NCBI GenBank assembly: GCA_001938485.1
Contig: MQRK01217006.1
Span: forward strand, 1 to 49,516
Source of the DNA: Girardia tigrina
Taxonomy: Eukaryota
Direction of reading: 5' to 3'
DNA length: 49,516 bases
Both the position numbers and the translations under genes were made by a program. How positions within the stretch are numbered: position 1 is the stretch's first letter; each line of letters opens with the position of its first letter. Of this stretch, positions 5,201 through 33,070 are shown piece after piece. Below the pieces are notes generated by a model. The model did no database searches. It saw nothing but the letters and a program-made list of their open reading frames with translations, and was not told where the DNA came from.

Positions 5201-8200
5201 TCCCCACTGTTGCCCCTCGTATATCAGTTTTTCAAATCCGCAAAATCATTTTATCCATCTCACCTAACAAGCATAGTGAATCTATAGGATATGGGGAAGA
5301 GCAAAACGAACATCTCATTTGATTTCTATCCTTTAATCATAACTATGTTGATGTCTATAGTGCTAAGTACATATCAGACTCTACACATTTTGTTTTCCCC
5401 ACAATTTCAACCCGTGCAATCATTGCCAAAAATAAGGAGTATGTTTTACGCCATTTTTGCCTTCAAGATATTGCATCTTGCAAAATCATTTTCTATCCAG
5501 TCTACTTTCGCCAATCTAGATGAACTTAATAGTAACTAATATCAACACTAACACTATATCAGTTTATGACCCAACAGGTTGCCTTGACATGAGTTGCTAT
5601 CTAATTGAAATCAACTCTATCAACCAATTTATCTCCAACATACTCCTCCTACGCGATAAGTTTCTTGTCACCAAGAGTTCCCCAACATTTCAAACATCGA
5701 AAAAATTTGCCGACTAGAACGCCATATATGGGGAACAAAGCGGCTGACAATAAGCTAAAGGGAGCCCAACTGCAACAACTTTTCATGAGGAACCTTAAAG
5801 CAGCTATGAAACATGTTTTATCCGACACGAGCTCGGATACTCATCCTTCCCCTGATTGTTTCACTGAGTTTCACATTAAAAATGCTGCGACTGACCCCCT
5901 TAGTATTGAAATCAAACCCGAGACACCTAATAAAGTGGAAATTTGAATTTCATGTCCCCACTCCTGAAGAGATTATGGCATGCTTAAAATCCAAAGACCC
6001 TTCCTCTCCAGGTAACAATGGTATTACTTATAAAGATATAATTTATTGTGATCCGTCGGGTATTATTACATATAATCTTTTAAAATAATTTTTGATAAGG
6101 GTCTCCCCCCAAATAGCTGGAAAAATTATCTAACGTTAATGATCCCTAAACCAAATAAAGATGGTGAATATCACTTCCCCTCCTCTTGGAGAGGTATTGC
6201 CCTACAAGAATGTATTTACAAATTATTAACTACTCTCTTGTGTAAAGTAATTGGGTGGATCCGGCAACACCACCTTCTTCACCCCCTCCAAAAGAGCTTA
6301 GGACCCAATGATGGTTGTGCTGACCACACTTTTTTACTTCGCTCAATTATTGATTATTATCAGAGGTATCTTAAAAAACAACTTAAAATCTCTTTTATGG
6401 ATATGGCTGCTGCGTTTGACACAATCTCAGTTAGCTATATATTTGAATTAATGAATAAAATGAACGCTGAACAAAAATCAACTGACTTAATTAAAGAATT
6501 CTATAATAATTGCACTACAACTATTGTGTGTGCACAAGAATCCACCAAACCTTTAGCTGTTAACATAGGAGTTTGGCAAGGTTGCCCCCTTTCGATGCTC
6601 TTATTTAATATAGGAATTAATCCAATTTTAATTGAAATAGATTTATTTAGATGTGGTGGAATTCTTTTAGGTAGTCGCAAAATTTCATGTATGGCCTATG
6701 CTGATGACTTGGTCTTCCTGGCTACCAATAAAAATGAGCTTCAGGATGTCATTGAAGCCGCGTCTTCTGCTGTCAAAAACCTTCAAATGTCGTTTCGTGC
6801 ATCCAAATGTGCAGTGCTGGATGTCCCCTTTGTCAAGAAAGACAATTATATCATTGGTGGTGTGAATATTCCCAATCTTACCACTAAGGAAGGATACCTA
6901 TATTTGGATTGTTTTGTAACCCGTCTCATTACCTACACCCCCCAACAGCTTTTTGATGAGGTAACTCGTGAAGTTGAGCTTATTTACTCCTCTTCCCTAT
7001 CCGCCAACCAAAAACTCCATACCTATAAGTTTTTCGAGCACTCCAAATTCATTTTTTATTTTCGCAACACCTTCATCCCATTTTATATTTTTGAAATGGC
7101 AAGCTGTGCTTGGGACATCCAACTGCGCTTGTTTCACAAAAAGATCCTTGGCCTTCAGGATAATGCCTCCACTTCCTATCTTTATTGTCCCAAAGCATTC
7201 GGTGGAGTTGGTATCACCTCCCTTAAAGATGAGTAGTATGTCCAGTCCATCACTCATTCTTTCTACTCCACTGACCCCAATATTATTGCTGTCAATGATG
7301 TCACCCTCCGTAGACTGTTAGGAGACATGAACATAACGCACTCCCAGGTTTTTGACTGGCTAAATGATGGCTTCCGAGCACATGCTAACACTTCTTCGTG
7401 GAACAAAACTCAGCCCGCTATACATGATCTTAAGGAATTTCATAAAATAATTGTCAACTTTAAATATTCTAACCCGGATGTAATTTTAACTATTAAACAA
7501 CATATTCAAAATGAAGGACATAATTTTATTACAGACGAAATTTTTAGAATCAAAGATAAGGATAAAATATCAGAAACACTTAGGGAATATATTGGATACT
7601 CGTGGGTTATAAAATGGGACGAACAGAGTAGTGCTGGTCGATACTCTGAATGCCTTTCTAAATCTCCCCTCTCCACTTCCCCTATCTATAATGGTCCCCT
7701 TGGGCACAGCGAATGGAGATTCATCCACCAAGCTCGGTCGTACACTGTTCCTGTGCGCTGCAGACCTGGAGCTCTGACCAGTATCTTGTGTAGACGTGGT
7801 TGTCCTGCTGAAGAAAACTTGGCTCATATACTGGTGGGCTGTTACTCCATGAGTAGTTTCTAGATTGCCCGACACAGTTCAATTCAGCACATCATTGCCA
7901 AAGAACTATCCACTTTCACGGACGCAGAAGTCTATGTCAAGGAAGATTGTGTCTTCATTCGATCTGCCCAGAGAGTAGACCTTCAAGTTTGTTTCCGGGA
8001 AAAGCGTAAAATATTCTTAATAGATATTAAATGCCCATATGAGACTGAAAGAAATATAAATAATGCTGATAAGAGAAAAATAAATAAATACTGGGACTTA
8101 AAAACAAATTCAACAAGCATATGGGAACTCGTGGAAAGTTGAACTTGACACCTTCATTGTTGGGCCACTAGGATCATGGTTACCCGACAATGAACTTATT

Positions 8201-9385: not shown

Positions 9386-12300
9386 TGTTGTGCTCCCCTT
9401 CAAAACAACACTTTCAAAAGCTGAGAGCCCCATCCGCTTTAAGAGTTCAACGGCAACTCTGTTATAAACTCAATCAACTTCAATTCAATCTTTGGGAGCC
9501 AACACGCCTCCTTTGCTCACATCAACAAGTTGTGTGTACATCGGAGCGCCTACGGGTTCTTGACCAGTATCGAGGATGACCCGACTGGTTACTCAACTTT
9601 TTGAGGGGTTGATATTAGTTCGAATTAAGATTTATATTTCAAATTGCATTGATGACGAAAGGCAAAGCTAATTACAAGGAAACAGACGTCGAACTGCCCG
9701 CGTGCCCCTTACATGCTACGAGCACCATACGTCGTTGCCGAAGGTCCTTTGTCTCAAATTATATTTCAGATTTACATATTTATATATATCTTTATGCAAT
9801 ATATTTGATATTCGTGCTCAGTCACATACATGATTAGTTATGTTAGATTCGATGATACTTGCTTATTTAGTGATACTTGTTGAGTAGCAGCGAGAATTTT
9901 ACAATTCAACAATTTATTTATTCTTGAAGTTATTGTTCAAGAAAATCTTAAATGACGCTCAATACTTCGAACGCCTCAATTATTTGTGATCATGATTGTC
10001 TAAAATGCTTATAACTTTATTCATATAAATGTTCAAAATTTAACGATATTTTATCTAATTACGCGCCGATAAGAAAATGATTGTGTTGAAACATAAATTA
10101 ATTCTAATGTGACATTACTCGACATTGTATTAAGCTTACTCAAATATTCGTGTCATTAGTCGACAAAGCAAAACAACCAGCAACAAAATTTTATTTTAAT
10201 CAGCGCACTTTCAATAACTCATGAGGAATTAAGTTAATCGTATGAAGCTCGTCTATATCAATAACTCTCACTCGTGATTCTCTACATTTCCTCATTTCAA
10301 CTCTCAATCAAATAGTACTTTTAAATTCATAGACACTTCGCGCAAGGATAGATCGCTCATATCTCGTTTCTGCAATCACTCTTGGTAGTCATAAAGAGGA
10401 CCGATGCTCGTTCGATAGTGACTTTTTATAACATCTCACACTCCTCTTGTACTCATTATGATAATAACTCTCATTGCACAGTTTTATCTCATCTTTATTG
10501 AGTTTGACCATTTATTCGAATACCATTTATTCCAAGATACTTGACTTGGTTTGGTTCAGTCATTTATTTGTATATCATTTAATTAAAATCATTTAAGCAC
10601 TTTTAAAATACAATTTGATAACAACAAGGCAATCCAAGAATTAAATGAAAATTATAAAAGATGAGAATTAATTATTACCGTTTAATAAAAGAAAATCATT
10701 AAGACTTTAGTTCTTTACAAATTATACATTAAATGAGAATTTAATAAAAATTAATTAAACTCGTTAAATCCAAGTTGTTAATGAAAATAAACTTTAATTT
10801 CGAATTACTGTAATGACATTATCAAATATTAACAAAATTAGTAAACCAGTGATAAAATTGGTAATTATGATATATACAATAATAAGGTTATAATCGAATT
10901 AATTTTCCAACAATTCTAACTTCTTCCATAAATCTGTTATATACACTATCTATAAGACCTGCATACGACTCAATTACACTTCGAAGTCCAAGGACCACTC
11001 CTCCTGATCCCTTGGACACAGAAGTGAACTGTATTCGCATTTTTTCCACCTGGACCTCTAACCTCTTTGCCAATGGCGGCCTGATTAAATTTAGACACTG
11101 CGATTTCCGAACTCAAAATACAGATAAGGTTATCACCATGGCGAATTATTGGTAATATGATATTCAAAATTAACCAGATTAAATCAATAAATTAAAGAAA
11201 AAATTAAATTAAAATTTTATTAGGAATAACTCAAATTATATTGTTAAATCGAACATAAAATTAAAACAAAATTCCGAAATCAAAATCAGCAACACAATTA
11301 AACCAAGAATAATGGTAAATTAGAACTTTAAAGCCGATATTAATAAATAAAACATTAATAAAACGAAATTAAATCGGAGTAAAGAATCAAGAAAACAAAA
11401 TAATTGAATTGAGAATCAGGAGTAAAATACCTCTTAGTTTTGATGCTGTATCGTCACTCAAACACAATCGAAATTCGACTGCAATCGTATAGAGTTCAAA
11501 ATTATTAAAAGCGTTCTCGTCACAATGGTATGAATTCGTGCCGAAATATCGTATCGCAAAATATTAAAATGTTGTGTCAGAATTTTCGAAAGTGCGAAAG
11601 TGTGCGAACCGGTTCGGGTATTTATACCCTACCGGATACACGCAAACTTCGATGGTTCGGCATCCTGTATGCCGATTACTGCAAGGCAGGATGTTGCGAC
11701 GAAAATCTGACTGTCATCTCGACAGTTGTTTATCTGTCGTTCAATGGCAGATTGTAGGGAGGGGTTTTTTACCTCTCTGTTCTGTTTACTTCGCCATCCG
11801 CGATTCGTTGCTAAACTCTAACCGGCTGATGGTTTTCGACAGAATGGGAGAGATGAAAGATCATTGCGCGTCCGGCTGACCGATTAGGTAGATTTCGTTT
11901 TTTTTCACATTGAACAAGCATCGTTGTTTATTCAGGATGTTCATGAACAGATGTTTGTTTATCGGGGTGCAATATCGGGTTATCGCAAACTGCTGTCTTC
12001 CATCCTAGACGGTGTTATGATTCATGGTTTGTTAATTAATTTGCTCTTAATTAGTCTACCTTTATTTCAATTTTTTGGCTTTTTCCAAAGGTCTACTAAG
12101 GGTTCTGCCAAACGTTTTTTTGTGTCTATTCGAAGTTAGGGCTGGCCTATTATGGAGGAACTAAACCTGACCCGTTTTTCCGGCCTCTCTCGCTTTCAGG
12201 TGGGTTTCGACGGACTTTTCGAAAAACTTTTTCATTTATTTATTTCACTTCTAGCTTATGGCCAGTTCGACAATTATCGCAAAGGGTAGAGGCTTCCCAG

Positions 12301-12446
12301 TCTCATCCATCACTTCACATGCTCTGGGACCTATTTACACCCACTTGTTATAGTCGAGCCAGACTATAGCCAACTCAATCTTCTCTCAAAGGTTCCTGGC
12401 GTGGGATGGTGGCGTTATTGGGGAGCTCAGGATCTTCACCGTAACA
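9386..12446 (-). mobile_element. Giant LTR-like unit A (~3.06 kb)
   Basis: Termini TGTTGTG...CGTAACA. Colinear blocks shared with 13409-16209 and 30659-33070. Minus-strand TATAAATA at 11619-11626. Confidence 0.75.
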
Positions 12447-12472
12447 TTATGGAACTCTATCAGGGTCTCTAT

Positions 12473-13405
12473 TGTAACAGATTATACTAAATGAATGACG
12501 ATAATATAACTTTATATATGGGTTAAGCAAAAAGGGGAAAATAAAATAAAATAACACAATTAATGATCAAAATGATATATTATCAATACATAAAATAAAT
12601 TCAATGAAGTAATGTATCGCAAATAACTACAATAATAATTAATAAATCGTAACCCGTACTTGTTGTAGTCCTCCAATGAAATAGCAATGAACAACCGAAA
12701 TATCAATTCTTCAATATAGTATTCGAACTCAAAAATTAATAACTAGTAGAATATCAGATTAGAATCTGGGACTTATGCAAAAGTCGTGTTGTATCAAAAT
12801 TGGGGCTCGTATAAAATTTCGTTCAAAATTTTGTGTGTAAATTTTTTTGTTGTTAAAATTTGGTTTAAAAATTTGTTTGTAAAATTTTGTTCTTAAAAAT
12901 TTGTTCGACTTGTGCAAACCGATTCGGGTATTTATACCCTACCGGATGCACATATTTCTCGGTACGCTCGGGCATCTCATGTACTGATTACCTCGAGGCA
13001 GGATGAGAGAAAGGGTGCTGCGACGTCCTGTCAGATTATGTCGAGATTGTAATCTGAATCCAACTATTTCGGATTGTCAGGGACTATTCTGTTAACAAAA
13101 TACCGACAGTTGTTTATCTGACAGGAAGAAGGGGTAAACTGCGACTATATTATTCTGTCTGTCAGTTTATTCATTCTGTTTATTAAGCTATTTCATTCGC
13201 TAATCTCATCATCCTTGATTCACGGAAACGACAATTTATTCTAGGTAATCGGTGAATATTCGATAGTGGTTATATTAATGATTATTCTGTTTATTATTTT
13301 TCGTCTAAATTGCTCTTCGCTCCGACCGTCGTTGATGCTTTGTGGTTGCCGCCATCAGATTAACGATTCCAGATGATGCGTAGGTGACTGCGTACCGACC
13401 TTACA
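12473..13405 (-). mobile_element. Shorter related solo-LTR-like unit E (~0.93 kb)
   Basis: Inverted termini TGTAA...TTACA. Shares the ttcgggtatttataccctaccggat block (12923-12947) and gacagttgtttatctg with unit A. Confidence 0.6.
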
Positions 13406-13408
13406 ATA

Positions 13409-16209
13409 TGTCGTGCTCCCTTTCAAAACAACATTTTCGTTGGCTCTGAGCCCCATCCGCTTTTAGAGTTAAACGGCAACTCTGTCACGAAACATATTCA
13501 ACCTCATGCTATTGGGGAACAGACGCGCCTCCTTTGCTCACATCAACAAGTTGTGTGTACATCGGAGCGCCTTCGGGTTCTTGACCAGTATCGAGGATGA
13601 CCCGACTGGAAGCTCAGTTTCTGGAGGGGATGATTACAACTTTACTCACACAATTCGTCAAGTTCGATTTTATTTATTCACGTCGGACAAGGATACCTTC
13701 GAGAAACAAGTGACGGTCAGCCCACGTGCCCATATGCATTCTATGGTCTGCCTGCACCGTCTTTCTAAGTTCCTCGCCCGAACAATAACTTCATCATTAT
13801 TCATAATTATGTTCAATTCATGAGTGACACCTCGTATCTAAATTATCTTTGATGATCTAATTATGTATACGTTATGTTATTATGCTGGTTATATTTCATT
13901 AAAATTTTTTTATATTTTATTATATTTTTTTATATTCACTTACACTGGAGAATCTAATTCTCATAACTTGATTTGTGCTCGTGGCAAATTAATATTTGAT
14001 ATATATCAGCCCACACCTTAATCGTCACAGAACTCTAGTTTCTCAGTAGATTTTAAAACCTGGCTTTGATTTTATAAGTATTGATTGAATTTTGAAACGA
14101 TAATTTACTCGACATTTTGATCTTGGAGACCTTGAAAGCCTTTAATTTAACGCATATGTCTTTGCCTCTAAACATTGAACTAATCATTGTTACACAAGGT
14201 TAAAGGAACGTTACAATCATCATTTCAGTCATACATTGGTAAGGATAACTTATATTCAACACCAAGATCTGCATTACTTTACTTAAGATAATCGTTTCAA
14301 GACGTTTACTCTTATCAATCAGAACTGCCCTGATTATCATTTTTAACTTCACTTGTATCATACGACACCTCTCAGAAGTTAGCGTCACACTAGTTTATAT
14401 TTAGATCTCATTGCTTTAATCGTCACCTCAGAGTTATCTTTTCGACTTCAACTTTATCTTTCCGTCTCCTCATAATAATCATCGGTTGTAGTCCTGATGA
14501 GAACTGTGTCTCGTTCTCTCATAATATCTTAGCATCATGCCGATCACAATTAACTTAGTACCAGTCTTTAGCGATGTATCCAGTGCAATCGTATTAGAGA
14601 ACCGCGAAATATTTTTTTTCTAATAGGATTCTACTTTCGACTGTATAAACTTTCAATTCATCAAATCCACTTTAAAATCATATAATTTACGAGATAAATT
14701 GTCATTACATGAATTACAAAACAAATTGAAATTTATATTAAATTAAAATAATTTATTACATCATTACAAAAACCATTAAATCTTTACACTTTTAAATTAA
14801 ATTAATTATAAAATAGTCCATAAAATAAAATTAAATTAAATAATCATAATTAACTTTACTTAAAAATAATCAAATAATCAGAATTAAAGTTACTTAAGAA
14901 CAATCAAATATCAAACGAAAAGTGTAATGACGATGTAATAAAGTCTAATCAAATTCTGTATAGAGTATTGCTCTGGAATTATGCACAAATATTTACATCG
15001 ATTTCATCCGTACGACCTGATTACGTACCCGAACCCAAGGATCGCTCTGCTGGATCCCTTGGATACGGAGACGAACCGTAATCGTACTTCCGAATCTCAA
15101 GTTCTATCGACTCTATCTCAGTATTAATCATTATGTGATTGAATAATATTGCGAAACAAATCAAATACAATAATGAGAGCAATAAATGGAATTAAATATT
15201 TATTTGAAACCAAATATACCAATTGATAAATAAAATTACACCTTTAATTAATAAAAATGAAAATACGACTTAGGGTCATTAAGTAAAAGAATAAATTAAA
15301 TCGACAAAGTTACGAAACGAATAATCCTTGTTAATAAATATGTGAATAAATAGCAATTAAATTAAATCAAGATGAAATAAATGACTAGACCAAAGTAATG
15401 ACGATACCTCTTATAAGTTTTTTCTCCTTCGAAATAATCGTAATAGTCGTCTGGCAGATAATGAATCGTAAAAATGTTTACTTTGAAAATATACGTTAAC
15501 AAAAGTGTGTTTTTGTGGGCGTTTGTGCATAATTAGCACAAGTATTTATATGGACAGGATGTGCATGTTATTCGGTAAACTGATTATCTGGTTATCGGCA
15601 TCCTGTCAGACCAAAATCTGACTATAAACAATTTGGTTTAGCCGGGATTCATCTGCTTTCCTTTAGCAGGTTGTAAGGGGTTTTTACTGTCATACTTTGT
15701 TTATTCTGTCGTCCAGGATTCGCGAGTTTTCACTGCAGAATGATGCACTACCGTGGGAGGGATGAAGGATTATTGCGCGTTTTGTCGGCCGATTAGGTAA
15801 ACTTCGTTATTTTCACATCGAATAATCATCATTGTTTATTCAGGATGTTCGTTTGTTTATCCGGCTTATCTCGAAATCGTATGGGATCTTGAATCATCCG
15901 ATTCGTAATTCTAATTAAAATTCTTAATTAACTTTAATTTTTTTCATCTTTTCAGACTTTTCCAGGGGATCTTTAAGGATATCAGACTCCGGGCTCACAA
16001 TCAACCTCAGCAAATCATCACAGGTCCCTCTGGACTGCACTGCCTTGCTGACGCACAGAAGACATTTAAACATAACCGGGAATAGTCGAGTTTGACTATT
16101 CCCGAACTCTACAACAATGCCGTGCTCGCGGGTGGTGCAATGGACAGAAGGGATCTAACAGGGTGTCTGATTAGCGGTCGTAATAGGGATCTAATTATTG
16201 GTCGTAACA
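13409..16209 (-). mobile_element. Giant LTR-like unit B (~2.8 kb)
   Basis: Termini TGTCGTG...CGTAACA. Same block order as unit A. Flanks aata/aatg may be an imperfect 4-bp TSD. Confidence 0.78.
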
Positions 16210-16225
16210 AATGTTATCGACAGTT

Positions 16226-19082
16226 TGTTACGGTCGGAAACTCATTAAAGCATTACAATACATCCACAAACACGCAAACATAGCACATAACACACAAAAA
16301 ACAAAGAAAAAATCAGCAAATTTTATACATATATTTAAAAACCTTAACAACATAATAATTCTTCATATCCGGTTCCCTCGAAGCTCGTAGATGAAAACTA
16401 AAAACAATCATATAAATGAGCAAAATAGATAAAAAGTCGACAAAAATTACCCGATTCCAAAAAGAAGACCGACCCCTGGATAGCATAAGGCAAGAGAAAC
16501 TCCGGAGTAATGACCCGCCGAGAATTTTCATGACCTGAGAGTAGCTACAAATCTTGAAAGAAAAAAGAATTAATTAAAATAAACCCAAAAATTAATAAAT
16601 CGCCTGCCGAATTATCTATTGGAGCTGAGAAGTCAACCGACCCCCTCCGCATAGCCCCTTGCGAAACGGATCCATGGTCGGAGCGTATAAGTTGATAACG
16701 GACCCCTGTAAAAAGTTATTCACCCTTAAAGAGAAAAAATTAATTAAAAACTAGACAAAAATAACAAAGTCACCTACTAGACTATCCAATGGAGCTACGG
16801 GGTCAACCGACCCTCCCATAATAGATTATCGCGCGGGCAATCCGTGAACGAAACCCGCGAAGTCACCGGACCACCCTGAGGAAAGTTATAAGCCCTGAAA
16901 GTTCAAATAATTAATTAAGAAAAATAGAAAATTAATTAATCTTACCGTGAGTCAGCCAAAAATCCGAAAATAATCGTCAGCTGACGATTCATCCATGAAT
17001 CAGCAGCAAGCATGTTCCACAGATTTGAGAGTGTTTAAAGACACACGAGCTGCGGATTCTATAATAAAATAAAAAATTTCCAAAAATTTTAGAGACACAC
17101 TTACCAGTCCGACCAACCAGCATCGCAGAAATCTCAGACAGTTGGTTGGCAAGATTCGGTTGGATAGAGGAGGACGACAGGATGACATATCTACAATATA
17201 AAAGGAAAATCATTTTTTGACCAAGTCGCACAGAATTGCTCACCATTAATCAACGAGACTGAATCCACGTTTACACGAGCTCTACTTCCAAGCAGAAATA
17301 TTCGACCGACGATCAGTGTTTAGCCGAGTGATAGCCGAACGAAATCCATAACCGAGAAACGCGAAGGCGATAACCGAACTCGAGAATCCGGACCCAGCAG
17401 AACGCTTCTATCTACAGACGCGTCGACGAGTAAAGAATACTAAACACCGACTGAGCAACAACTTTTCCGACAGTCCTCCGGTTATCGATCAATTTGTAAT
17501 TATTTTATCTTGTTAATTTGCTACCCTAAATACATGAGTTTAATATTATTATTTAGTTATCAATAATTATTAATTAATGGTTAAATTTCTTACCAAGCAC
17601 CCGTTTTTATCATAAGTAGGTCCAGTCGTCGCCGCCGCTCCTTGTCGTAAATGTCCCAGATTAGCCTTCAGCCGAGTCAATCAATTAGGGTTGAGAACGA
17701 TCACGTTGTCATAGTGATCATTAATGCGGGATCGATACAGTTAAACCATGTATCGGAGGCGACCGCGTCGAACGAATTTCCGGCAGAGCGAAATCCCGAA
17801 TTCACGACCGAACCCGATAGTCCCGCCGCGAACAGCGACCCCGGCGTCGAACAGCAACTGGTTATCATCGATGTGAAGCCGATATCGATAGACGATATGT
17901 CGGGACTGATTAGTTCCCGCATAAACGATAACCCACCGACGTGGGATGAAAACATTCAAATTAACGCCTGCGACCTTCAGATTATTTAAACAAATATATT
18001 ATTTCTATTATTTTAGGTTTTCTTATATTATAAATTTAGGAATTATTACTATTTTGAAGTTGGAATTACTATAAAAAAAACTAAAAATTAAATCTTACGA
18101 TTATTTTGAACTATTCCAAAAACTAAAATTGAATTATTATTGGGGTAATGATATTTAAAAAATTTATTAAAATTGAATTTTGAGAGCGATTTAATTATTA
18201 TTATGAGTTTTCCGGAATTGAAAATTTTAAGACTCGATGAATAGTTTAATTTATTATAATTAGGATTTTTTTACGATTTATATAATTTACTGAGATTTTA
18301 TTTATGAACCGTTTATTGATATTTTACTAGAAAACAATTTTTCTACCCAATTTACTTCGACTACTACTGTAAATAGAATTGAAAACCCGATAATAAATAT
18401 TTCGACAACAAATTGTCTGGGATCGCAAAATAAATTTTATCATTTTGCCCCATAAATTTGATTTGTTGATTTAGCCGCGATGACTTCCTGATTTTACCTG
18501 CTGATATCGTTTTAATTCAATCTATTGTCATACGAATTGATTAGTGTTGCGCGTTAACAGAGCTGTCTCGATGCGAACAAATTTTGCAGCGTAAGCCTGT
18601 TCCCGAATTGCTGAAGACAAACTTTGTGGTAAAAGTCGAATAGCTCTACTGATATAAAGTATCACCATGGCGAATAGGGATGATCTAGTTAAGGGGCTTG
18701 TAGATAGTGTAGCGATGTGCATCTAAAATGTTATAATAAGGACCCCTAATGATCATGAACTCGACGTAGTTATGACAAGAATATGTCACGATATAACGCT
18801 CACCACTTATTCGTTCAAACCGATAGTAAATTACTTCATCACGTCAGGCACGAGCAACGCATCCATTGGAGGAATACACAATTATATAGAGTAGAAACAT
18901 ACTCCTATCGACACTGACCAAGGTGGGGGGCCCACAGCCTATCCCACCTTTAACTGAACCCGAAGGCCCCTTGAGCTTGGCACTGCTAAGCAGATGTCAA
19001 GCAAGATAGGAGGCGTCCGACCCTACTTATAATGACAATAAAATTAAATAGGTTTAATATGGGTTGTGGTTGACCCTTAACA
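16226..19082 (+). mobile_element. Giant LTR-like unit C (~2.86 kb), divergent relative in opposite orientation, probable 5' LTR
   Basis: Starts TGTTACG, the same start as A and B read on the minus strand, and ends TTAACA. TATAAAAG at 17197-17204, AATAAA at 19037-19042, GAACCCGAAGGC...GGAGGCG motif at 18956-19015. A PBS follows. Confidence 0.72.
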
Positions 19083-19087
19083 ATCAC

Positions 19088-19097
19088 TGGGGGCTCG
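19088..19097 (+). promoter_or_regulatory. Primer-binding site complementary to the tRNA-Pro 3' end
   Basis: TGGGGGCTCG matches the first 10 nt of the canonical Pro PBS (TGGGGGCTCGTCCGGGAT) and lies 5 nt after the LTR-like end. Confidence 0.65.
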
Positions 19098-19129
19098 CGA
19101 GCTGTTAAAAATGTTTGCACTCGAGAGGG

Positions 19130-19816
19130 TCGTGACAAGTTGTTTATCGGAGACAAGGCACAGGGTAGGGGTTTTTTCAGTCTTCACTTCTCGAATGCAT
19201 TCTATTGCGAAGTGACTGTTATCTGGGGTAATTATTTATCGTTAATCATTTTCGCTCTGATTGACAGATGACTTTTTTACAGATGACTTCCTGCAACCGC
19301 GTAATTCGTGCTTATTCATGTTGGTAACTTTTAATTAACTAATTAAGATTTCATTAATTTCTAAAGTTTTTCAGGGTTTCAGAAGCTTTTTCGCTAACTG
19401 GAATCGATCAAAAAGGAATGGGTCGACGTTCAGGGAGCTCTCCTCGCGTCCTTCGTCCCGTGTGCTCGGAACTGATTTACAAATAATTAGTATAGTCGAG
19501 TTTGATGACTTCCTGCAACCGCGTAATTCGTGCTTATTCATGTTGGTAACTTTTAATTAACTAATTAAGATTTCATTAATTTCTAAAGTTTTTCAGGGTT
19601 TCAGAAGCTTTTTCGCTAACTGGAATCGATCAAAAAGGAATGGGTCGAAGTTCAGGGAGCTCTCCTCGCGTCCTTCGTCCCGTGTGCTCGGAACCGATTT
19701 ACAAATAATGAGGATAGTCGAGTTTGACTATCCTCACAACTTTCGCTAAAGGTTTCGGGCGTATGGACGCGTAGGAGGGTTTCCTTCGGATTGTCGTTCA
19801 ATATCGCGTCGTTGCA
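19130..19816 (-). mobile_element. U3-side fragment of another giant LTR with an internal 222-bp tandem duplication
   Basis: Shares the agttgtttatc...gtaggggtttttt block and the ATAGTC-GAGTTT-GACTAT hairpin; ends CGTTGCA. 19282-19503 is repeated at 19504-19725. Confidence 0.7.
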
Positions 19817-22800
19817 TATCTATTTCTTTGTTCTTCCAATTCTAATATCTTCTCTGATCTGATTTATTTCTTCATTATCTTTCTGCCACTTGAACTATTT
19901 TGATTCTTCGTCTAAAGCCAAGATTGGTGTTTTAATCTTTCATTTTTTTAGCTTATTCGTGCATTGTTTGACACTGACAAAATAATTCACAAAAATTTCT
20001 CGACATTGCATCTGCATTTGAGTGTTCTCCTTTTCGATATTCCATTCTCATATCCAGACTACTAAGAAAATTTATCCACGTTTGAAATTGCGGTGTTATT
20101 CGGTTTTTGGTATTCAGCATAAAAGTAATAATTTTATGATCAGTTCTTAGTGAAAATGTTTACCGTATAATAAGTTTTTAAAATTTTGCGTAAAATATTA
20201 AATTACCAGCAGCTCTTTCCTTGTAACACAATATCCAAGCTCGTGTTTGTTCATTTTATGTGAGCCATACGCAATCACTTTCTCTCTTTCAGACGTATCC
20301 TTCTGTGATAACACTGCCCGATTGTATCGAAATTTACATCCGTATCCACTATAAACTCCTTCTTAAAATCTGGATACGCCAGTATCTGGGTGTCAATCAT
20401 TTTTTCTTTCAATTTTCGAAAAGCTTCCTCGCATTCTGCAGTCCATATTATTTTCTTCTCTTTATTCTAACCACACAAACCCTCCAATACTTTTGAGTAT
20501 TTTGGTTAATCTTTTAAAAATTTTATGTAGTAATTTGTTAGACCCAAGAAACTTCTCAAATGCTTGATACATGATGGGTGCTGAAATTTTTTAATGGCCT
20601 CAATCTTTGTTTGATCAGTTTATATACCATTCTTACTGACAATATATCCTAAAAATCTTGTTCTTTCTGTTAAAAATTCACACTTTTCTGGGTTAATTCT
20701 TAAACCTTCTTCCTTTATTTTTTTCCAGTACATGTTTTATTTGTTGCATATGCTCTTCTTTATTTTTTGCAAATATCAAAATTTCGTCCAAATATACTAC
20801 TGCCGCTTTCCAATTCAAGTCTCCTAGAATTTGACCTAGAATTTGGAAAGTTACGGGGTTGCTACTATCCCGAAAAGCATTCTTTTGAAACAATACTGTC
20901 TGCTCTTTGTTGAGAATGCTGTTTTAATCTTTGATTCTTCTACCAACTCGACTTGGTCGTAAGCGTTTCCAAGATCAATTGTACTTAAGTATTGCGCACC
21001 ATTCAGTGTGTTCAGCATATCATCTACATTCTGCATAAGAAACGCTGGTCTGACGATAATTCTATTAAACTGGCGGAAGTCTACACACATTCGAATATCT
21101 TGTTTTTCCATCTTCCACACACATACTAATGGGAAATTCCATGGTGAACTGCACTTTTCGATTATGTCATTTTCTTCAAAATTTTTAATAACATCATCCA
21201 ATTTTTCTTCAAAATGTTGTGGTTGCTGATAAGGCTTTACTAGTATTGGATCCCCGAGTGTTTCTATTCTGTATTTTGTCAATGATGTTTTCCCAATATC
21301 CTACTTGTCAACCATAAATAATGATTTATAATTTGTTAAAATCTCCATTAATTTCCTGTCAAATTGCTTGTTAAATATTTCCATTATTCTTTTTAGATTG
21401 TCCTAATCTGGTGGGTTGTATCTAATCACAAATATTTCCCCATCTCGAGGTATCTGTCTTTTCAGTTTCATTCCGAATGTATCCAAAAAATCTATACCTG
21501 CGATCATTTCGGGGTCTAGTTCTTTGACCACATAGAACTCTATTAAATTTTGTTCCCTCAATAGCAACATTCAATTGAACGATTCCATAATTAACCAGTT
21601 CTGAATCCATTGCGCAATGGATACGTTTTTTCGTTTCTCTTATTTTAATATCTTTCATATTTTTAAATATCTGCGCTAGTCATTTACACTGGCCCCGGTG
21701 TGCAAAAGGCAATGAACTTTTCTATCTTTCACGTAAAAATCCACTCTTGGACGTCCTTTCAGTTCTTTATAAGTTATCTTAAACTTTGATATCTTCAATA
21801 TTTCCGTTTTACTTTTAGTTTCTTATCATCTTGAGTTTTCATAATATTACACTGGTCTCGATTTCCAATATGTTCACATTCAAGTTCGCAAATCTCTCGA
21901 GGAATATTTTCATACGTAAAATCAAATATATATTTAAATTGATTTCCTAATGAAGCACACCTCTCCTTGTGATCGGGCGTCCTCATTTCCCTGATCGTCT
22001 CCGAATCTTCTTTTACCTCTAGAATAATCCCTTGCTGTATTCTCTTCTCTTCTATCAGATATTTCCGATCTCTTGTCCATTTCATCATCTCTGTTGTCTA
22101 ACCCCATCAAATGTTGTTTCTTATTCATAAATGCCGGTCGTTCTCTATATCCCTGATTAGAATAATCTCTCCTGTCATTCCAACGATTTCTATTATTGTC
22201 CCATTTCCGTTAGTCACGTTCTTTAAACCTATTTGGGTTTCATAACATTGTGTTCGTAGATGTCCTTTTCTTTGACAGTGATGCCACTTAACGTTCGGAC
22301 ATTCTCTTCTAACATGACTTTCCTAATGGCATGCCCAACAAATTATTTTTCTGACTTTATAATTTTGACTTGTACCTTCTCTCTTTACTTCTTCGTTCCG
22401 TAGTTTTAATTTTCTTTAATTCTCCAAAATTTTCCAATCGTTTTCTTTCCTTGTGTTATATGCTGCAATCGGTGAATTTCTTTTCTTTTTCCCGCATTCG
22501 TACATCCTCATTTGTATGTTTTCGATCTCCTCTGACTTTTTTAAACCTCAAATCGCTATTTCTTGATATTACGAGGGGTGTCCCAAAAGTAACAACAAAT
22601 TCAAAAAGTTTACTCCAGTTAACAAAATTGATCAATCCTCATCAGAATCGCTATTCAACTTTTCAATATAATCACCATTCTGTTTCACATACGTTTACCA
22701 TCTGTGTCAACTTCCTAATACCATTATCGAAGAAAATGCGCAGTGTCTCCGCAATCCACGCACTGACTACTGTTTTCATTTCATCCAAATTCGCGAAATG

Positions 22801-24696
22801 ATGCCCTCGAAGAGGTTTCTTCAATGCTGAGAAAAAGTGATAATCACTCGGAGCAAGGTCCGGTAAATGTGGGGGATGAGGCAAAAGTATCCAGCCCAAT
22901 CATTGCACGGTACTGGCAGTCAACTTCGCTGTATGGGGACGTGCGTTGTCCTATTGCAATAATGGGATGGATGAAAATTTTTCCCGTCGTTTGTTCTTGA
23001 AAGCTTTGCGCAGATCTTTGTCGAGCAGGTTCGTGTAGTATGCGCTGTTGATGGTGACCCCCTTTGGCAGGTAATCAATGTGAATTATCACATCACAGTT
23101 CCGAAAGACTGTAACCATTACCTTCCCGCTGAAGGGACGGTCTTCGCCTTTAAAAGGGGTCTGTCACCTGGGCGACACCATTGATGGGACTACTCCTTGG
23201 TTTCAGGAAGCTAAAACGGGAGCTACGTTTCGCCCACTGTCACAATCCGGGACCAGAACGCCTCACCGAGATCATGAACCAGTTGCAGCAGTTCTTGACA
23301 AGCAGACTTTCGATTAGCCTTCTGGTCGTTGTTGAGCACGCACGGCACCCACCTGGCAGTCAGTTTCCTCATATGCAGCTCCTCTGACATGATGCGGTGC
23401 ACCTGACTTTTAGAAACGCCTATAATAGCTGCTATCTCACGGATAGTGAGACATCTATCACCAAGAATGACTTCCTCGATAACTTTCACATTTTCTTGAC
23501 ATCCGGACGTTGTTGGTCGCTCACTGCGTTCATCATCGTCCAATGATTGATGCCCTGCCTGAAATCGTTGCACCCACGTAAAGATAGCCGTTCTTCCCAT
23601 AGCGGCATCACCAAAGACGCGGTGTAAACGGTGCAAAATATCTGCAGCGGGTGTGTCTTCCTTCCAGAAGAAATAGATGATTGATCGTTGAGATTTCACT
23701 GCCTCTTCCATACTAACTACAAGAGAGAAAAATGACAAATTAATACATTCGTATGTCACGCACATGCCGACGAGCAGCCAATGAAAGTTCACCTCAATTA
23801 CAATTGGTTAGTTCCCCCCTCATGTCATCATACACACACCGCACGTTACAGTCACGCACACCCGTCACCACGCCATATTCTCTCAGTCCGTGAACTTTTG
23901 TTACACTCCTCGTAGCATAGACCAAATTTGATAGTTCTTTCTTACCAAACGTGTTCTCCACTAATTTTCGATTATCTCCTCTGCTTTGCGGAACGCAATT
24001 GACGGGTCACAGCAACCTACTCTTAACTCTATGAGATCTTTCATCAAATCCAAAATAGATTTTTCTTTTGACAATGTCACTCGCATTTTCTCTTCGCAAG
24101 TACTCCCTGGGGTCTTCTCGTATCTCAGAATCGCATCTGGAGTCAAGTAGGGCATTACCAGTAGGATTTTCCTCTCTTCTGATAATCCCATAATCTTTGA
24201 ATACCTGTTAAAACTTATCAGGAATTCTTTTAATTTGTGCTCGGATCCATCAAATGTTTCTGGACCTTTGAAGGTCGGAGTCACGTGGTGTGAAGCCGCC
24301 ATGTTAAGAGAACTGACACATTTGACAGAACATTTACTACATTCACATTTTTGATTTCATTTATCTCTATGATGATCAATAGCATTGCTTTCACTTAAAT
24401 CCATCACTCAATGTTTTATACATCTCATTCTAATCTGAACTAACTTGAAGAAAATTATTTTATTTAAATTATTTAAAAATTTACAAAAATAAAATCAATA
24501 AATTATGTAAAATTTAAAATAATAAAAATTAAAAAAATTGAATATTAAATCTAAATTTGAATAAATTAGTTTCAGATTATAAGAATTAAAATATTAATCA
24601 TCCATCTGATTAGGAGAGACACAATCCAAAATCAGCACACAACATTTAAACATGCAAACCCTACACTAAACATCATCATACTAAATATTCCTCACA
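19817..24696 (-). mobile_element. Decayed Ty3/Gypsy LTR retrotransposon (5' LTR, gag, PR, RT, RNase H; integrase missing)
   Basis: LTR 24302-24696. gag MAASHH...GPETFDGS with CCHC knuckles; RT SSPWNFPLV, RMCVDFRQ, IDLGNAY, VYLDEI; RNase H remnants. Confidence 0.92.
22572..23912 (-). mobile_element. Full-length decayed mariner (DD34D) transposon nested in Gypsy gag
   Basis: TA on both sides (22570-71, 23913-14). TIRs cgaggggtgtcccaaaagt / cgaggagtgtaacaaaagt. Motifs WVPCVL, TVGET, DNARPH, HPPHLPDLAPSDYHFF. Confidence 0.95.
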
Positions 24697-26842: not shown

Positions 26843-28508
26843 TTATGAAAATTTATTCATAAAGTAAGCATGACCTTTCGGTTTAATATACCATATACGG
26901 TTACCACTATTTTCGCAATTTTTACAAATCCACTCAGCATGGGGTTCATTTCTTAACAGTTGATAGGCTTCAAACGTTAGTCCGGTACAACTTCGATGAT
27001 ACCAGTGGCCACAAGCATACCCACATTGAATAGACTCAAATTGCATATTACTAGGAACAATTTCTTTCTGGCATTGGCCACACACTTGTATTATTTGCAT
27101 TCTGTCCGACGGAACATTGGGATTGATAATTCCTTGTGGAATTTGTTGAGGACCATGTACTGGAATATTTCCCATCATATGAGCAGGTACATAAGACGAG
27201 ATCTGTCCAAAATGATAATTCGGCATTAAGTGCATCATCTCTGGGTGCATATTACCGCCTGTTACAAATTTATATTTCTAAATCTTATGCGAAAGTTATA
27301 TTTGTTCACGCAACTGTCATGCATTTATTATTCAAATGTCTTTGTATCAATATTATATTTAACAATATTTAAGTAAGTCATCAAAACTATAGAAACATTG
27401 TTTTCAAATTCTATTACATCTACTTCTAGTAATTACATTAAAAAAATTTTCCGAAAATTCAAAATCATATTTTTAAATTAAAGAAATCTAATAGTAGAAG
27501 TAACATAATCAACAAAAAACTAAAATGAAAATCTAATAATAAAAATTCCTATTTTTTGAGAATAGATAAAAATTAATGTTTTCTTCGATAGTTGTGTTCA
27601 TTTCTTGTGTATTCGTGACTTCATATGTATTTCGTAAGTTGAGTAGTTTATTTTCCTTCGCTAAGTAGAAAAACATAGTCAGAGGAAACTCTGATGGAGG
27701 ACCGCCGCGGTTCTGACGTGCAAATCGATCGTCGGACATGAGTATAGGGGCGAAAGACTAATCGAACCATCTAGTAGCTTGTTCCTTCCGAAGTTTCCCT
27801 CAGGATAGCTGGCGTTTATGATTCCATAGTTGAACCTGGTAAAGCGAATGATTAGAAAGAAGTATTGGGGGCGAAATGCTCTCAACTTATTCTCAAACAT
27901 TAAATGCGTTCGAAGTGCGCCTCTCTTTAATATTTTTGTTGGAGGTGTACATCGAATACAAATGCCTAGTGGGCCATTTTTGGTAAGCAGAACTGGCGAT
28001 GTGGGATGAACCAAAACATAAAGGATTTCTCTTTAATGTTAAAATAAAAAATTTATTATGAAAACACTAATATATACTTTAAAGATTAAAAATTAATTTT
28101 AAGTCTGTCAGTTGCGTAAACAAAAGTTTTGTTTTTCTAACCAGTAATTTGAGTCAGAGAAGCAGCATTACTGGGAATATTATGATAACCATAGTGACAT
28201 CCTTCTGCATTTGGATTTACATTAGGGTTATTAGGATTATTATGCCTTACAGACACTGGATATTGGTTATAATGCATTAAAGGCATCATTATTTGAGATT
28301 GGTTATCCTACACTATTTAAATAAAAAAGATTATAAAAATAATAACTTGAAATTGACATGGATGGGCAGAATATGCTTGCGGAGGAGTTTTAGAAGTGTT
28401 AGAATTTGCACTACTACTCATAGGATAATTAATAATGCTAGAACCATGTTGGCTCTGAAAACTCTGAGCATTAATGTTAGCACAATTGTCTAACGAAGCA
28501 TTATCCAT
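26843..28508 (-). CDS. pygo: Pygopus-like PHD-finger protein; exons 28508-28347, 28307-28142, 27258-26843 (~247 aa)
   Basis: C-terminal PHD CGQCQKEI...CGYACGHWYHRSCTGLTFEAYQLLRNEPHAEWICKNC closely resembles Pygopus PHDs (HRxCTG[LM]TxxAYxLLxxExxAxWxCxxC). Two GT-AG introns (39 nt phase 0; 883 nt phase 1) join the exons in one open frame with an N/P/Q-rich linker. The 5' end is uncertain. Confidence 0.8.
27678..28012 (+). pseudogene. Isolated 28S (LSU) rRNA fragment within intron 2 of the PHD gene
   Basis: Conserved eukaryotic LSU blocks: gaggaaactctg, ctgacgtgcaaatcg, ggggcgaaagactaatcgaaccatctagtagc, ccgaagtttccctcaggatagc, gggccatttttggtaagcagaactggcg. Flanked by the direct repeat AAAACATA. 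Confidence 0.95.
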
Positions 28509-29838
28509 GTGAAGTAATTAATTGCTAATATTTTGCAATATTTAATTTGTATAAATAATGAATGAATTATATATCCATTTCTGTTTTTAAAATATTTGAT
28601 TTTATCTATATATAAACAAACAAAACTTAGAAATATAAATATTTTCCAATATGAAATACATAATATTATTGTTAATCGTTAAATCCTTAATTTTTTAGTA
28701 TTTATTGAAATATTTTTTTTCTTATTAGATTTTTTATCTATAAGATACGTAAAGTAAAATTTTTTACAGTAATTGTTATTATAATCATAAACAATAATGT
28801 ACAAACAAGATAAATATTTGAAACAATTGTTTTATCAGATACGATACAAGATGCATATAAAGGTTGAATACTGAACAGAACTAAAACTTGTAATCTATTA
28901 TTGAAATATATTTACATTTCGATAACAAAAGTTATTGAGATTATTTATTAGACATGTTTGCGTATTTAGGTGATTGATAGATTTATTATTAAAACGAAAT
29001 AAAAAGACAATTATTTTCTTTAAAAATATATATTTATTATTTACAGGTTACAAAAGAATTAAAAATTTAAATCGTAACTTTTGATTTTAAATAGTTAAAG
29101 AAGTACTTCGTACTTGCCCTAAATGATTTTAAATATATAAAAATGTTGGCGTATCTATGTGATAATAAAATTTAAAAGGAAAATCAAAATAATTGACAAT
29201 TCTTTTAAAAATATTTATTTGTAAATCACAGTCTATAATTACAATTTTACAAAAGCTTTATCTTATTTCCTGAATTTTGAATTTGAATAATTATAGAAGT
29301 GAAGTTCACTTGCCCTAAGTAATTTTAATTATATAAATATATAATTACTTAAATACATAAATTATATTTGATTGCTCACTTGTTTCGAGACTTATTCGAT
29401 TCAATTCAACTTTACTCCATTCAATCTGTAACTGTACTACTTTTTATACTGTACAAATGACTTAATAAGTCTTCGACGGTGACTTTATTAATTAAGCTAG
29501 ATCTTTGTGGGTTGTTTAACAAATTCTGTTGACCGAATTCTTAACCTTTAAGATCGATGAGACTTTTTCTCTTCTTTTAATACAAATAATTAAGATTTCC
29601 TTGCTTGAGATTTATGTGCTTTTTTGTGTGAATCTTTCTTTTAAATTCTAATGTCTTTTATATTCTTCCTGTTCTTTTAATATTTTTCTTAGATAAATTT
29701 ATTTAAATCAAAAAATCTTTGTTATTTTGCTTAATATTTTTATTTACATAATCTGAACTATTTTTATTCAAAACATGCTTAAAATACCCGAAATCAAAAC
29801 TATGAAAATAAGAAATATTATATAAATAATAAAATAAT

Positions 29839-30625
29839 AATGTGAAAAGACATGAAACAAACCCCATAGTTTATGAGAAATAAGAATGCCCAATACATGT
29901 TTCCAAATTAAAGGAGTTGAAGACTAATTCAACACAGCAACAAGCATGTTTTAGGAAAATTCTGAAAGGTATTGTGACTTTCGTTACAGCAAGCGATGAA
30001 TTCAGCAAAACGCTTTGAACAGGAAGTCTTATAATGAAAGGGATTTTATAACGTAATGTCTTGTTTAGCGTTTTTGGTGTTAAGTTAATATAAAGAAAAT
30101 TAAATGATAAACATTAATGATGTGGATTATATTTTTAATTAAGTTTAATTTGTTATGAATTTTATGTTTGAAATTAAAATTATAAAGCTAGTTTGTTGTA
30201 AAAATTAGTCATTCTTGTATCGGTGTCAATGAACTTTATTGTGTTGATAAACAGTTTCGGTGTTAAAATGTGATTGTAAATAGCGTTTATGCCACTTTCA
30301 GTATTATCAAATTCCGAAATCATAATTTAACACCAAAAAATTTAATAATATCAACAATTCACATATTTAAACAAATTTCTTAATAATTCAATTATTTCGC
30401 CTAAAATTAATTCATTAAATTTTTTCGATTAAATTTTGAAAATTTACGAAATTTAAACTTTAAATTATTTTATATTTTTTATGAACTATTACGAAATTTA
30501 AACCTTAAAATAATTTTACATTTTTTCCGAAAATTTTATGAAACTTTATCATAAAAATTAATTAATTTAAATTTACAATAAACCCTTTTATTAAAAAAAT
30601 TATTTCTTAAAAGATTAATCCGTTA
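29839..30625 (+). repeat. ~790-bp repeat, copy 1 of an inverted pair
   Basis: Near-identical reverse complement at 41146-41915. Confidence 0.9.
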
Positions 30626-30658
30626 ATAGAAATATTAATCCGTTAATTTCGAGAGCAA

Positions 30659-33070
30659 TGTCGTGTTCCCTCCTCTGGACAACATTTTTGTTAGCTCAGA
30701 GCCCCCATCCGTTTTTTTGAGTTCAACGGCAACTCTTATGCACCGCTTATTCCTCTCGGTCATTGTTCACTGTTTGAGAGAACAGACGCGCCTCCTCCGT
30801 GCAAATCAAGAAGTTGTGTGTGCTTTGGAGCGCCTTCGGGTTCAAACCAGTAACAAGTATTGTCCGACTTGTGGTCTCAGTGCCTGATAGGGTTAATTTT
30901 GTATCTCATTGTTGTTTAAATATTTTAATTTTGATTATGATGAACGAAGAGGGCCTCAAGGAAATAAGCGACGATCGGACCATGTGCCCCTATGCATGCT
31001 GTGGTCGACCTGTGCCCTCTCCAAAAGGTTCTTCGCCCTAAGTAGCAACACAATTATTGTTTGTAATTTATATTCAGTTCATAGTTACACAGATTTATAT
31101 TTAATTTAATTATATGTGACGATACTTTGTTGCACTGGGTATTTTATAATTAAACTTACTCATTTATATCGTTATAAATCGGAAGAACAAACCGCCCTGT
31201 TTCCTTTAACTACTAACCTCACACTCAGCTCAAAGGGTCTCGAACTCATTCCCCGTTTGAGAATCTTGCTATTACCCGCGGTCACCTTAGTCACGTTTCG
31301 CCTCAGCAATAGGGAATTGGTTATCAAACAATAGAGTTTGATTCTCATAAGAAATTTTTTATTCGGGATGAAGTAATACTGTCGGGCAATTATAAAGTGG
31401 TTATTCGTGTGTGAAATGATTGAGTCAAGAAATATAAATCTGAATAAAAAAATGAATGATTTCGAATGTAATTAGTTTTGTACATCTTTCGACAAAATTT
31501 TAAAACACTATCAAAATGTTAGAGTCGTTCAAAATGTATCGCGTCTCGCTCACGTTTGTTCTTCCAGGACTCAAAGGTTTAGGTACAAAATATTAATACA
31601 ATTACAAAATGTATTTTCATTACATAATATTAGAATAAATTTATTTAATACATATTTTGAAATTATTATTAAACCTTTTCATTAAATATTAAACTTAATA
31701 CCAAAATAATGTCGAAAAATATAATGTTTAACAAATCTCAAGCAAATAATTCTGAATAAATTAATTTTCTTTTAATTTCAGAATAAATTAATTAATTCTA
31801 AACTCAATATAAAAGAATATACATTAAATAAAATTATATTTTATATATTTATTCAATTCTTGTTTACGTTATAAAATCTAGGAATATTCGAAAATTAAGA
31901 TTATTTTACACATGAAATCTTAACAAGGCTTGATGATAAAAGTTAATTGTTTAATAAAATATAAATTATTGTCAGCTTTCTAATATTCTGGTAATTATTT
32001 ATTGAGGGAACATTAAACATTTTTTAAGCGATCGGAATTATTAAAATACAATCTATCCGTGGAACTATTGGGTTTAAAAATGAAACGAGGAGTAGGTATG
32101 AAAGGGATGGACTATGCAAGCTATTTACAAAACATAATTAACCTTGGAGAAACGCTCCGACACTCAACTCAAAACAGTGTCGAGGTTTAGATTCTACGCC
32201 CTTCTCTGCCATTATTGTTTCGTCGTTCCTATACAAACCGTCATATCGTTTTCTTACGGGAGGTTTGGGCGTCCAACAAGGTTGATAAACCGCCATGACA
32301 TCGTAAGGGTTTGACCTCATATATAATGCCAAGATAGTCCATGCCTCTCATACATCACTGCCACTAATCGCAAACTAATTATTATATATTAAGGCAAAAT
32401 ATATTAAAATTAAACCAAACGCGTTTATCAAATTATTATAATCGAACTAAAATAAAATCAACATATTTATCAAAATATTACAATTAAACTAAAATCAAAT
32501 CAAACATATTTATCAAAATGTTATGAACGAATAACAATCGTACTTGTGTATTAATTTTGATCTCTTCACAATAACTAAATAATTAATGGAAATTTTCTAA
32601 TCGCAGGATCCAAAGTTACAAGGATTGTAAATTGTGCAAAATATATACGAAAGTGTGCTTGCTAATGACGTTTTAATAAGTGTACAAAATACTTAGTTCA
32701 GCAAAATAGTTAGTTAGGTAATTATTTTCTTCTGAGCTTTGTGCACACTCCTTCAGGTATTTATACCCGACAGGATGTGCATCTTTCTCGACACACTCGG
32801 GTTTCACGTGTGTCGACAATTTCGGTCATCATCTTGTTTACCGATGACATTGAAGTAAGGTAGAGGGGAAGTCTCTGCAACATCCGCGATTCACGAATGT
32901 TACATCTGCAATGCAAAATCTACAATCATCATGCCGGTCGAAGTGCACAGGATGTCGCTGTCGCTCACTCTACAGGTATTCGCGGTGTTTATCGTTATTC
33001 ACAATGCTGAATACGCACCGCGGTATCTTGCTCTTCAACGACAAGGTGTAAGGGGACGGTAAGTTGTTAA
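30659..33070 (-). mobile_element. Giant LTR-like unit D, truncated at the U3 end
   Basis: Starts TGTCGTGTTCCC like units A and B. Shares the structured blocks and the ggtatttatacccgacaggatg TATA block (32756-32777). Confidence 0.72.

Follow-up and report, generated by a model that had tools for sequence, protein, structure and literature searches.

A conserved predicted RNA module at the 3′ end of Burro-like LTRs in Girardia tigrina, with fixed boxes complementary to tRNA-Pro

Four Module-Bearing LTRs in One Contig

The stretch of DNA analyzed here, called the window, covers positions 1 to 49,516 of contig MQRK01217006.1 of Girardia tigrina (assembly GCA_001938485.1; 49,516 nt). It contains four divergent giant long terminal repeats (LTRs), A to D. 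Each ends in a copy of a conserved module, found at the 3′ terminus of Burro-like LTRs and predicted to fold as RNA. In LTR sense, boxes alpha and beta come first, followed by hairpin P3, box gamma (GAACCCG), and the long stem P4 with its bulged A; an A/T-rich linker then leads to a pseudoknot and to box epsilon, which is followed by about 50 nt up to the LTR end. The earlier note on this DNA had recognized part of it, namely a hairpin, the 12-mer GAACCCG(A/U)AGGC, a long stem with a bulged A, and GGAGGCG. All these elements are present as written and are reproduced in local folds; copy D takes a different minimum when the whole module is folded. The 12-mer had been placed correctly in all four copies, with exact matches at 9548-9559, 13569-13580, and 30832-30843 (minus strand) and at 18956-18967 (plus strand). 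A covariance model, built partly from these four copies, finds exactly four modules in the window and no fifth. The true extent is larger than had been proposed: about 250 nt, from a start some 55 nt upstream of the 12-mer to the end of the LTR itself. The following LTRs and module copies were delimited.

LTR A, 9386..13408, minus strand: about 4.0 kb; 3′ end (TG..CA) read at 9386; repeat D11
Module copy A, 9386..9613, minus strand: LTR end 9386; alpha 9605-9613, beta 9591-9597, gamma 9553-9559, epsilon 9425-9432 (one G short); P3 hairpin 9564-9588, P4 long stem 9505-9550, pseudoknot 9434-9459
LTR B, 3′ part, 13409..16225, minus strand: LTR B is about 3.5 kb in total and is interrupted by LTR C
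Module copy B, 13409..13634, minus strand: LTR end 13409; alpha 13626-13634, beta 13611-13618, gamma 13574-13580, epsilon 13448-13455 (one G short); P3 13585-13609, P4 13526-13571, pseudoknot 13457-13482
LTR C, 16226..19137, plus strand: solo LTR of 2912 bp with TG..CA ends, inserted in LTR B
Module copy C, 18897..19137, plus strand: LTR end 19137; alpha 18897-18905, beta 18913-18919, gamma 18956-18962, epsilon 19088-19096; P3 18920-18950, P4 18965-19015 with the bulged-A motif at 18981-18997, pseudoknot 19061-19087; AATAAA 19037-19042
LTR B, 5′ part, 19142..19816, minus strand: contains a 222-nt tandem duplication
Module copy D, 30659..30897, minus strand: LTR end 30659; alpha 30889-30897, beta 30875-30882, gamma 30837-30843, epsilon 30699-30707; P3 30846-30875, P4 30789-30834, pseudoknot 30709-30735

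The assignment of these repeats as LTRs was confirmed by the solo LTR C, which has TG..CA ends and is flanked by a 4-bp target-site duplication AGTT (16222-16225 and 19138-19141), and by 215 junctions genome-wide between an LTR end and a 17-nt primer site (0 in controls). Homologs of LTR C share an identical 5′ start with unrelated flanks. The 5′ end of LTR A adjoins the 3′ end of LTR B, forming a head-to-tail tandem junction, and homologous LTR starts can be aligned with LTR A up to 13411. LTR A contains two TATA-like modules, near 11620 and 12930. No target-site duplication was found for LTR A or LTR B, and no 5′ end for LTR D. Copy C had been thought to share little else with the others and turned out to carry the entire architecture through to the LTR end; AATAAA is confirmed in this copy, 21 nt beyond the end of the stem. 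A GC-rich conserved block is found 130-200 nt upstream of the module in A, B, and D (9680-9755, 13690-13790, and 30960-31045) and is densely covered by public contigs.

Genome-Wide Copies and Covariation

The core word GAACCCGWAGGC has 3103 exact matches in the genome versus 9 for its reversed control. A further 1245 words carry C or G at the W position (8 for the reversed controls), giving a total of more than 4,000 against 17. Among the 100 C/G-variant matches listed, this position is C in 98 and G in two. Inspection by eye of 100 fetched core-word hits placed 96 in an LTR module and two in an internal look-alike, the two others being unrelated. The 12-mer itself is not near-invariant, being exact in only 7 of the 23 readable copies anchored on the primer site (by eye): just its first seven nucleotides are fixed, the W position is A, T, or C, and the GGC varies with compensatory changes.

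Counts are based on 111 distinct copies, reduced to 82 at 88% identity and to 79 after three with a mis-picked epsilon were dropped. Alignment A1 contains 75 sequences (73 of the 82 plus two) and alignment A2 contains 71 (two further window copies added to 69 of the 82); rows with short pseudoknots, deletions, or mis-picked features are excluded from both. Paired and covarying cells are counts of sequences, not of evolutionary events.

In P4, 93.7% of the cells are paired, compared with 30-53% for slid partners, and two-sided changes affect 10 of the 13 pairs; this covariation was equalled in 0 of 500 shuffles. Within P4, the GGC of the 12-mer and the GGAGGCG-type strand are paired with each other, so both are helical. 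The AGGC and GGAGGCG described earlier as fixed junction nucleotides are thus stem strands, and most nucleotides of that "junction" belong to helices. Within P4, the bulged-A motif CAC / G-A-UG is fixed in sequence in all lineages, including family E described below. P3 is only modestly stable (median z of −1.19; z < −2 in 17 of the 79 copies) and failed to align across LTR types.

The GAGUU/AACUC hairpin formerly attributed to A, B, and D alone is stem 1 of an H-type pseudoknot that is also present in C. Two crossing stems, short loops, and compensatory changes define this pseudoknot, whose covariation was matched by 0 of 500 shuffles (74 two-sided cells vs 30 when shuffled). Stem 2 is paired in 91.8% of the cells and shows at least six paired states. 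The value for stem 1, 79.7% in A1, is understated, its register being shifted between LTR types. For 70 of 79 copies a perfect H-type parse was obtained; shuffled sequences gave one in 40 of 395 cases, antisense sequences in 13 of 79. The natural size range is 18-27 nt, the 18-nt form being carried by three very divergent lineages. On the LTR-sense strand, G-U pairs are more frequent than A-C pairs (104:18 and 34:7), which argues for an RNA fold on that strand. The proposal of a functional RNA fold is supported by this excess and by the covariation of the long stem and the pseudoknot.

Three public sequencing runs show a word share of 4-5%, and their contigs accumulate over the module and over LTR C's 5′ part. 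These contigs are mostly 80-95% alike and come without ends or strand, and two of the runs are possibly DNA; hence we make no claim on expression or host range. The 30 matches of a loose pattern in viral contigs are GC-rich and never include epsilon (0/30), pointing to chance, and none of the 26 matches listed among 28 from metagenome contigs contains the module.

Host Elements

The module-bearing LTRs are 2.9-4 kb long. The primer site found directly after the 5′ LTR is the complement of the 3′ end of the genome's own tRNA-Pro. In family E, dozens of copies carry a TRAF open reading frame (ORF) with zf-TRAF and MATH domains 3′ of the primer site. The family E element in G000:C240315 extends for more than 20 kb and encodes Gag, a mononegavirus-like fusion domain, protease, reverse transcriptase (RT), RNase H, and integrase. 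Its Monjiviricetes_fusion domain sits between Ty3_capsid/zf-CCHC and RVP; the primer site is at 26009 and the integrase frame is still open at 4000. The 5′ LTR of family F, which is about 59% identical to E in env, comes with a C-type module and the Pro site; four more contigs have the module downstream of env. A C-type subfamily flanks full-length family F elements, the window itself holding LTRs only. For the A-type LTRs, the only ties to such elements are the module and an internal ORF remnant in common, and many of their interiors seem to be short. The placement of the window's own LTR types in such elements is tentative.

The planarian Burro elements are described as giant, with an env-like fusion protein between gag and pol and a TRAF ORF (PMC6431247). 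As in Burro/GYPSM1, the elements described here have a TRAF/MATH ORF upstream, a CCHC Gag, a fusion protein between gag and protease followed by protease, RT, RNase H, and integrase, and an interior of more than 20 kb. They are Burro-like by anatomy matched to the published description, not by reference sequence. The available portion of that description is silent on LTR RNA structure and on the primer (PMC6431247).

Additional coding features were noted in these and related elements. The LTR of family E contains a 143-codon coiled-coil-like frame on the sense strand before the module (L306:2583-3011 and others), 72-100% identical among copies. A captured TRAF-like ORF with zf-TRAF and MATH domains, often stop-free, lies at L227:7842-9206 and shares about 37% identity with other TRAF-like genes in the genome. 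C-type elements have a 176-codon frame after the primer site that matches no Pfam family (L157:790-1317 and homologs), and its remnants occur about 1.4-1.7 kb into A-type interiors. A small gypsy lineage of at least 150 copies (L399:4130-4925, L172) has env between gag and protease, an LTR of about 0.8 kb, and a primer site that differs from the Pro site.

Complementarity of the Boxes to tRNA-Pro

All tRNA-Pro sequences used are the genome's own genes, an initial tRNA-Pro search pattern having matched nothing. These genes (L114, L176-L181) lie in small tandem clusters; CGG and TGG anticodons were found, and the pattern search gave no AGG.

Box gamma is the complement of positions 49-55 of the tRNA-Pro gene, in the T stem and loop. 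Epsilon, which begins where the pseudoknot ends, is a second 9-nt site for the 3′ (CCA) end of tRNA-Pro. As both boxes had been used in selecting copies, we assembled unbiased sets anchored differently. Epsilon has at most one mismatch in all 28 readable copies anchored on the primer site (by eye). Among 37 copies anchored on the bulged-A stem, gamma reads GAACCCG in 20, GAACCTG in 13, and GGACCCG in one, the two variants (14 of 37) retaining tRNA pairing by G-U. One of the remaining three is broken (GAACCCA) and two are mis-anchored. A complement of gamma is found only in Pro and Ala among nine isotypes, and in 1.8% of shuffled tRNAs.

The alpha/beta region was not used in copy selection. Among 14 tRNA sequences, its best binder is tRNA-Pro (−24.0 kcal/mol; next −19.9; upstream control −16.7), through nt 1-25, the 5′ strand and D arm. 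This was equalled by 2 of 300 dinucleotide shuffles, and Pro ranks first of nine isotypes in 9 of 10 lineages. The match extends beyond the C-run/GGGG, as its level was reached by 0 of 2000 shuffles keeping the GGGG run. The alpha variants ATCAT-CCCC, ATCA-ACCCC, and ATCATACCCC each fit the D arm with at most one bulge. Alpha and gamma are 43-51 nt apart in 66 of the 72 scored copies. The order of the boxes differs from that in the tRNA; the module is thus neither a simple antisense copy of a tRNA nor a Pol III promoter. The latter candidate fails on box order and on the B-box, the order being reversed on the antisense strand, and no tRNA was called in the window. A fourth box, CGTCYG, was dropped as a tRNA complement, being absent in family E and in L046. 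An antisense cUNCGg tetraloop would suit the 12-mer and was ruled out by family E and the G-U bias.

A Candidate Platform for the tRNA Primer

Gamma and alpha/beta match exactly the parts of the primer set free by annealing, which suggests an extended platform for primer binding and activation. We consider it somewhat likely, from sequence complementarity, that the module serves as such a platform, with the proline tRNA as primer. Once the 3′ 18 nt of the tRNA have annealed at the primer site, the 5′ acceptor strand and the T-arm strand would be released; alpha/beta would take nt 1-25 and gamma would take the T arm and loop, with P3 and P4, the variable hairpins, keeping the boxes at a fixed spacing. 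There is less support than for the box pairing for what epsilon, the adjoining pseudoknot, and the bulged-A motif may do: the CCA end may first land or park on epsilon, and the motif may be a contact for Gag or RT. The RNA fold proposed in the earlier note is supported, and its list of functions omitted the main feature, the complementarity of the fixed boxes to the primer tRNA.

Extra pairing of primer tRNAs is a principle already known. In HIV-1, the T arm freed by primer annealing is reported to pair with the primer activation signal (PAS) in U5 (PMC3675109, PMC11251516, PMC11181671), a short sequence upstream of the primer site (PMC3675109), and the U5-TPsiC interaction of avian sarcoma virus likewise involves a T-arm complement upstream of the primer site (PMC3185550). 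The module has such a T-arm complement upstream of the primer site, with a register shifted toward the T loop. Whereas the PAS matches canonical positions 48-55, gamma matches 50-56; it is placed some 170-200 nt upstream of the primer site and is accompanied by two other tRNA boxes, two hairpins with sequence turnover, and a pseudoknot. Among LTR retrotransposons, Ty1 (multipartite), Ty3 (bipartite), and Drosophila gypsy (3′ PBS, primer-binding site) also have extra tRNA-complementary boxes (PMC4974528, PMC1635307). In Ty1, boxes for the TPsiC and DHU (dihydrouridine) arms help primer packaging and initiation, and the 5′ pseudoknot is required for reverse transcription (PMC4974528). These boxes supplement short primer sites of 8-11 nt and are placed downstream or at the far end, whereas the module is associated with a full-length primer site, has its boxes upstream within the LTR in a non-colinear order, and includes a duplicate site for the CCA end. 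Helenus TRIMs (miniature retrotransposons bearing terminal repeats) also contain tRNA-related sequence inside the LTR; they are about 1 kb or less and retain a tRNA-like Pol III promoter (PMC10886601). The module differs by its permuted complements, the B-like sequence preceding the A-like one on the other strand.

A bolder version of this proposal is that the module is a dedicated loading dock, a single folded RNA that would bind the primer by almost all of its arms, the anticodon arm excepted, park the CCA end on a second site stacked on a pseudoknot blocking premature extension, and then pass it to the true primer site. We put it forward tentatively, as a possibility with the odds against it. 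If true, no RNA known from a retroelement would handle its primer in a more elaborate way, and these env-bearing giant elements would have their first conserved RNA module.

Several observations weigh against a role in primer binding. On structure, the G-U count is biased because the pairs were predicted on the sense strand, and in 62 of 79 copies it is the antisense strand that has the lower minimum free energy. On the tRNA matches, alpha/beta of family F ranks Pro seventh of nine isotypes, beta matches poorly in several C-type subfamilies, and GAACCCG is seldom followed by the G needed to lengthen the duplex. A shuffled tRNA matches some 7-mer of the 12-mer with a probability of 6.9%. For the GGGG test, the tRNA segment 1-30 was picked after the result was seen, and the isotype panel is limited to nine. 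The ten lineages share ancestry (56-80% identity) and are therefore not ten independent trials. The partner of gamma is not unique, as gamma also matches the anticodon loop of tRNA-Pro(CGG) and the antisense look-alike of family F. Every module-bearing family uses tRNA-Pro, and no lineage with another primer was found; the one other env-bearing gypsy lineage covered (G), with its short LTR and different primer site, has no module of its own. The poly(A) hexamer profiles differ between LTR types and give the module no consistent R/U5 placement. Among known elements, the available text on MLV, which is primed by tRNA-Pro, describes no extra interactions (PMC3185550), and the 3′ tRNA site of Drosophila gypsy is reported to bind tRNA and to be dispensable for cDNA synthesis (PMC1635307).

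Alternative Explanations

The module could instead be a packaging, dimerization, or export signal recognized by Gag or a host protein, the tRNA-like complements being read-through relics kept for shape or contacts. This is the most plausible of the alternatives and still a fairly improbable one. It would account for the fixed CAC / G-A-UG motif, which tRNA pairing does not explain, and fits the retention of the module by short elements devoid of pol and the reported binding of Ty1 Gag to the Ty1 5′ pseudoknot (PMC4974528). It leaves unexplained why three boxes continue to be complementary to the primer, with variants that keep the pairing; the two roles are not exclusive and both may hold. A control of 3′-end formation or stability of the LTR transcript, the pseudoknot blocking a 5′-to-3′ nuclease or suppressing polyadenylation in the 5′ LTR, appears unlikely. 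The pseudoknot strand is GU-rich like a downstream element, and in C-type copies AATAAA peaks in the linker preceding the pseudoknot (18 of 45 copies, 28 of 45 with variants). The hexamer of A-type copies peaks instead upstream of the module (14 of 30 at −100), with 3 of 32 in the linker. Slightly less probable still is a fixation of gamma by pairing with a distant internal sequence of the element RNA rather than with a tRNA, as in the U5:AUG and PAS-masking switches. Family F does contain, about 6.5 kb after the primer site, a near-complement of about 24 nt to P3-3′/gamma/P4-5′, the best of 311 windows (−40.2 vs a mean of −18.1, SD 6.8), present in all 30 copies fetched by that region. Its conservation (0.954) is barely higher than that of its flanks (0.92 and 0.91), family E has no significant equivalent, and a free partner would allow gamma to drift, yet gamma is fixed. 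This near-complement, found in L316:6650-6690 (G000:C249044), L325, L054, L001, and L334-L363 about 0.8 kb before the polyprotein frame, is possibly a long-range masking strand, which would be compatible with the primer platform.

The boxes might also be decoys or targets for tRNA-Pro fragments (tRFs, 5′ and 3′) that silence or regulate the element. Alpha/beta matches nt 1-25 and epsilon the 3′ end, which correspond to the two common fragment classes, and 3′-tRFs are reported to target primer sites (PMC7472051, 10.64898/2026.01.22.698655). As this explains neither the T-arm box nor the fixed spacing, and epsilon is short (9 nt), we regard it as quite improbable. Least probable of all is an unrecognized self-cleaving ribozyme, one of the options listed in the earlier note. 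A pseudoknot and conserved unpaired residues would suit such a function, and the GAA opposite GUC bears what we take to be a loose resemblance to loop A of the hairpin ribozyme. The recommended Rfam search of the window and 12 diverse loci returned no family on the module, core words of five ribozyme classes occur in 0 of 79 sense copies, and the GUC strand is not conserved in family E or in L046. Cleavage in the 5′ LTR would furthermore sever the genome from its cap and R region.

No description of the module was found in the literature searched; Repbase entries and supplements lay outside this search and may contain a prior mention. Its size, three-box layout, and duplicate CCA site on a pseudoknot appear to be new, and it provides a new natural H-type pseudoknot of 18-27 nt. 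Extended primer-template pairing is disputed even for HIV-1 and is known in detail for few elements. Here, a conserved, covarying module is available in thousands of copies, whose natural variants predict which pairs matter, making the primer platform testable with a 300-nt transcript and one tRNA. Burro-like LTRs are otherwise too divergent for alignment, and the module gives them a short structural marker.

Other Features of the Window

Two decayed gag-pro-RT-RNase H copies of another gypsy family lie at 19850-24300 and 35812-39100, both ending just past RNase H; the first contains a mariner-like insertion near 22700-23800. Their assignment as the interior of module-bearing elements was given up. 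Several LTR types sit inside this pol-fragment family without a primer site, indicating that the pol fragments are probably insertion targets. The window also contains a 28S rRNA gene fragment (27625-28115), an 800-bp repeat present as an inverted pair 96% alike (29824-30627 and 41143-41930), and, at 6076-7863, a reverse-transcriptase frame with a stop that probably belongs to a non-LTR element.

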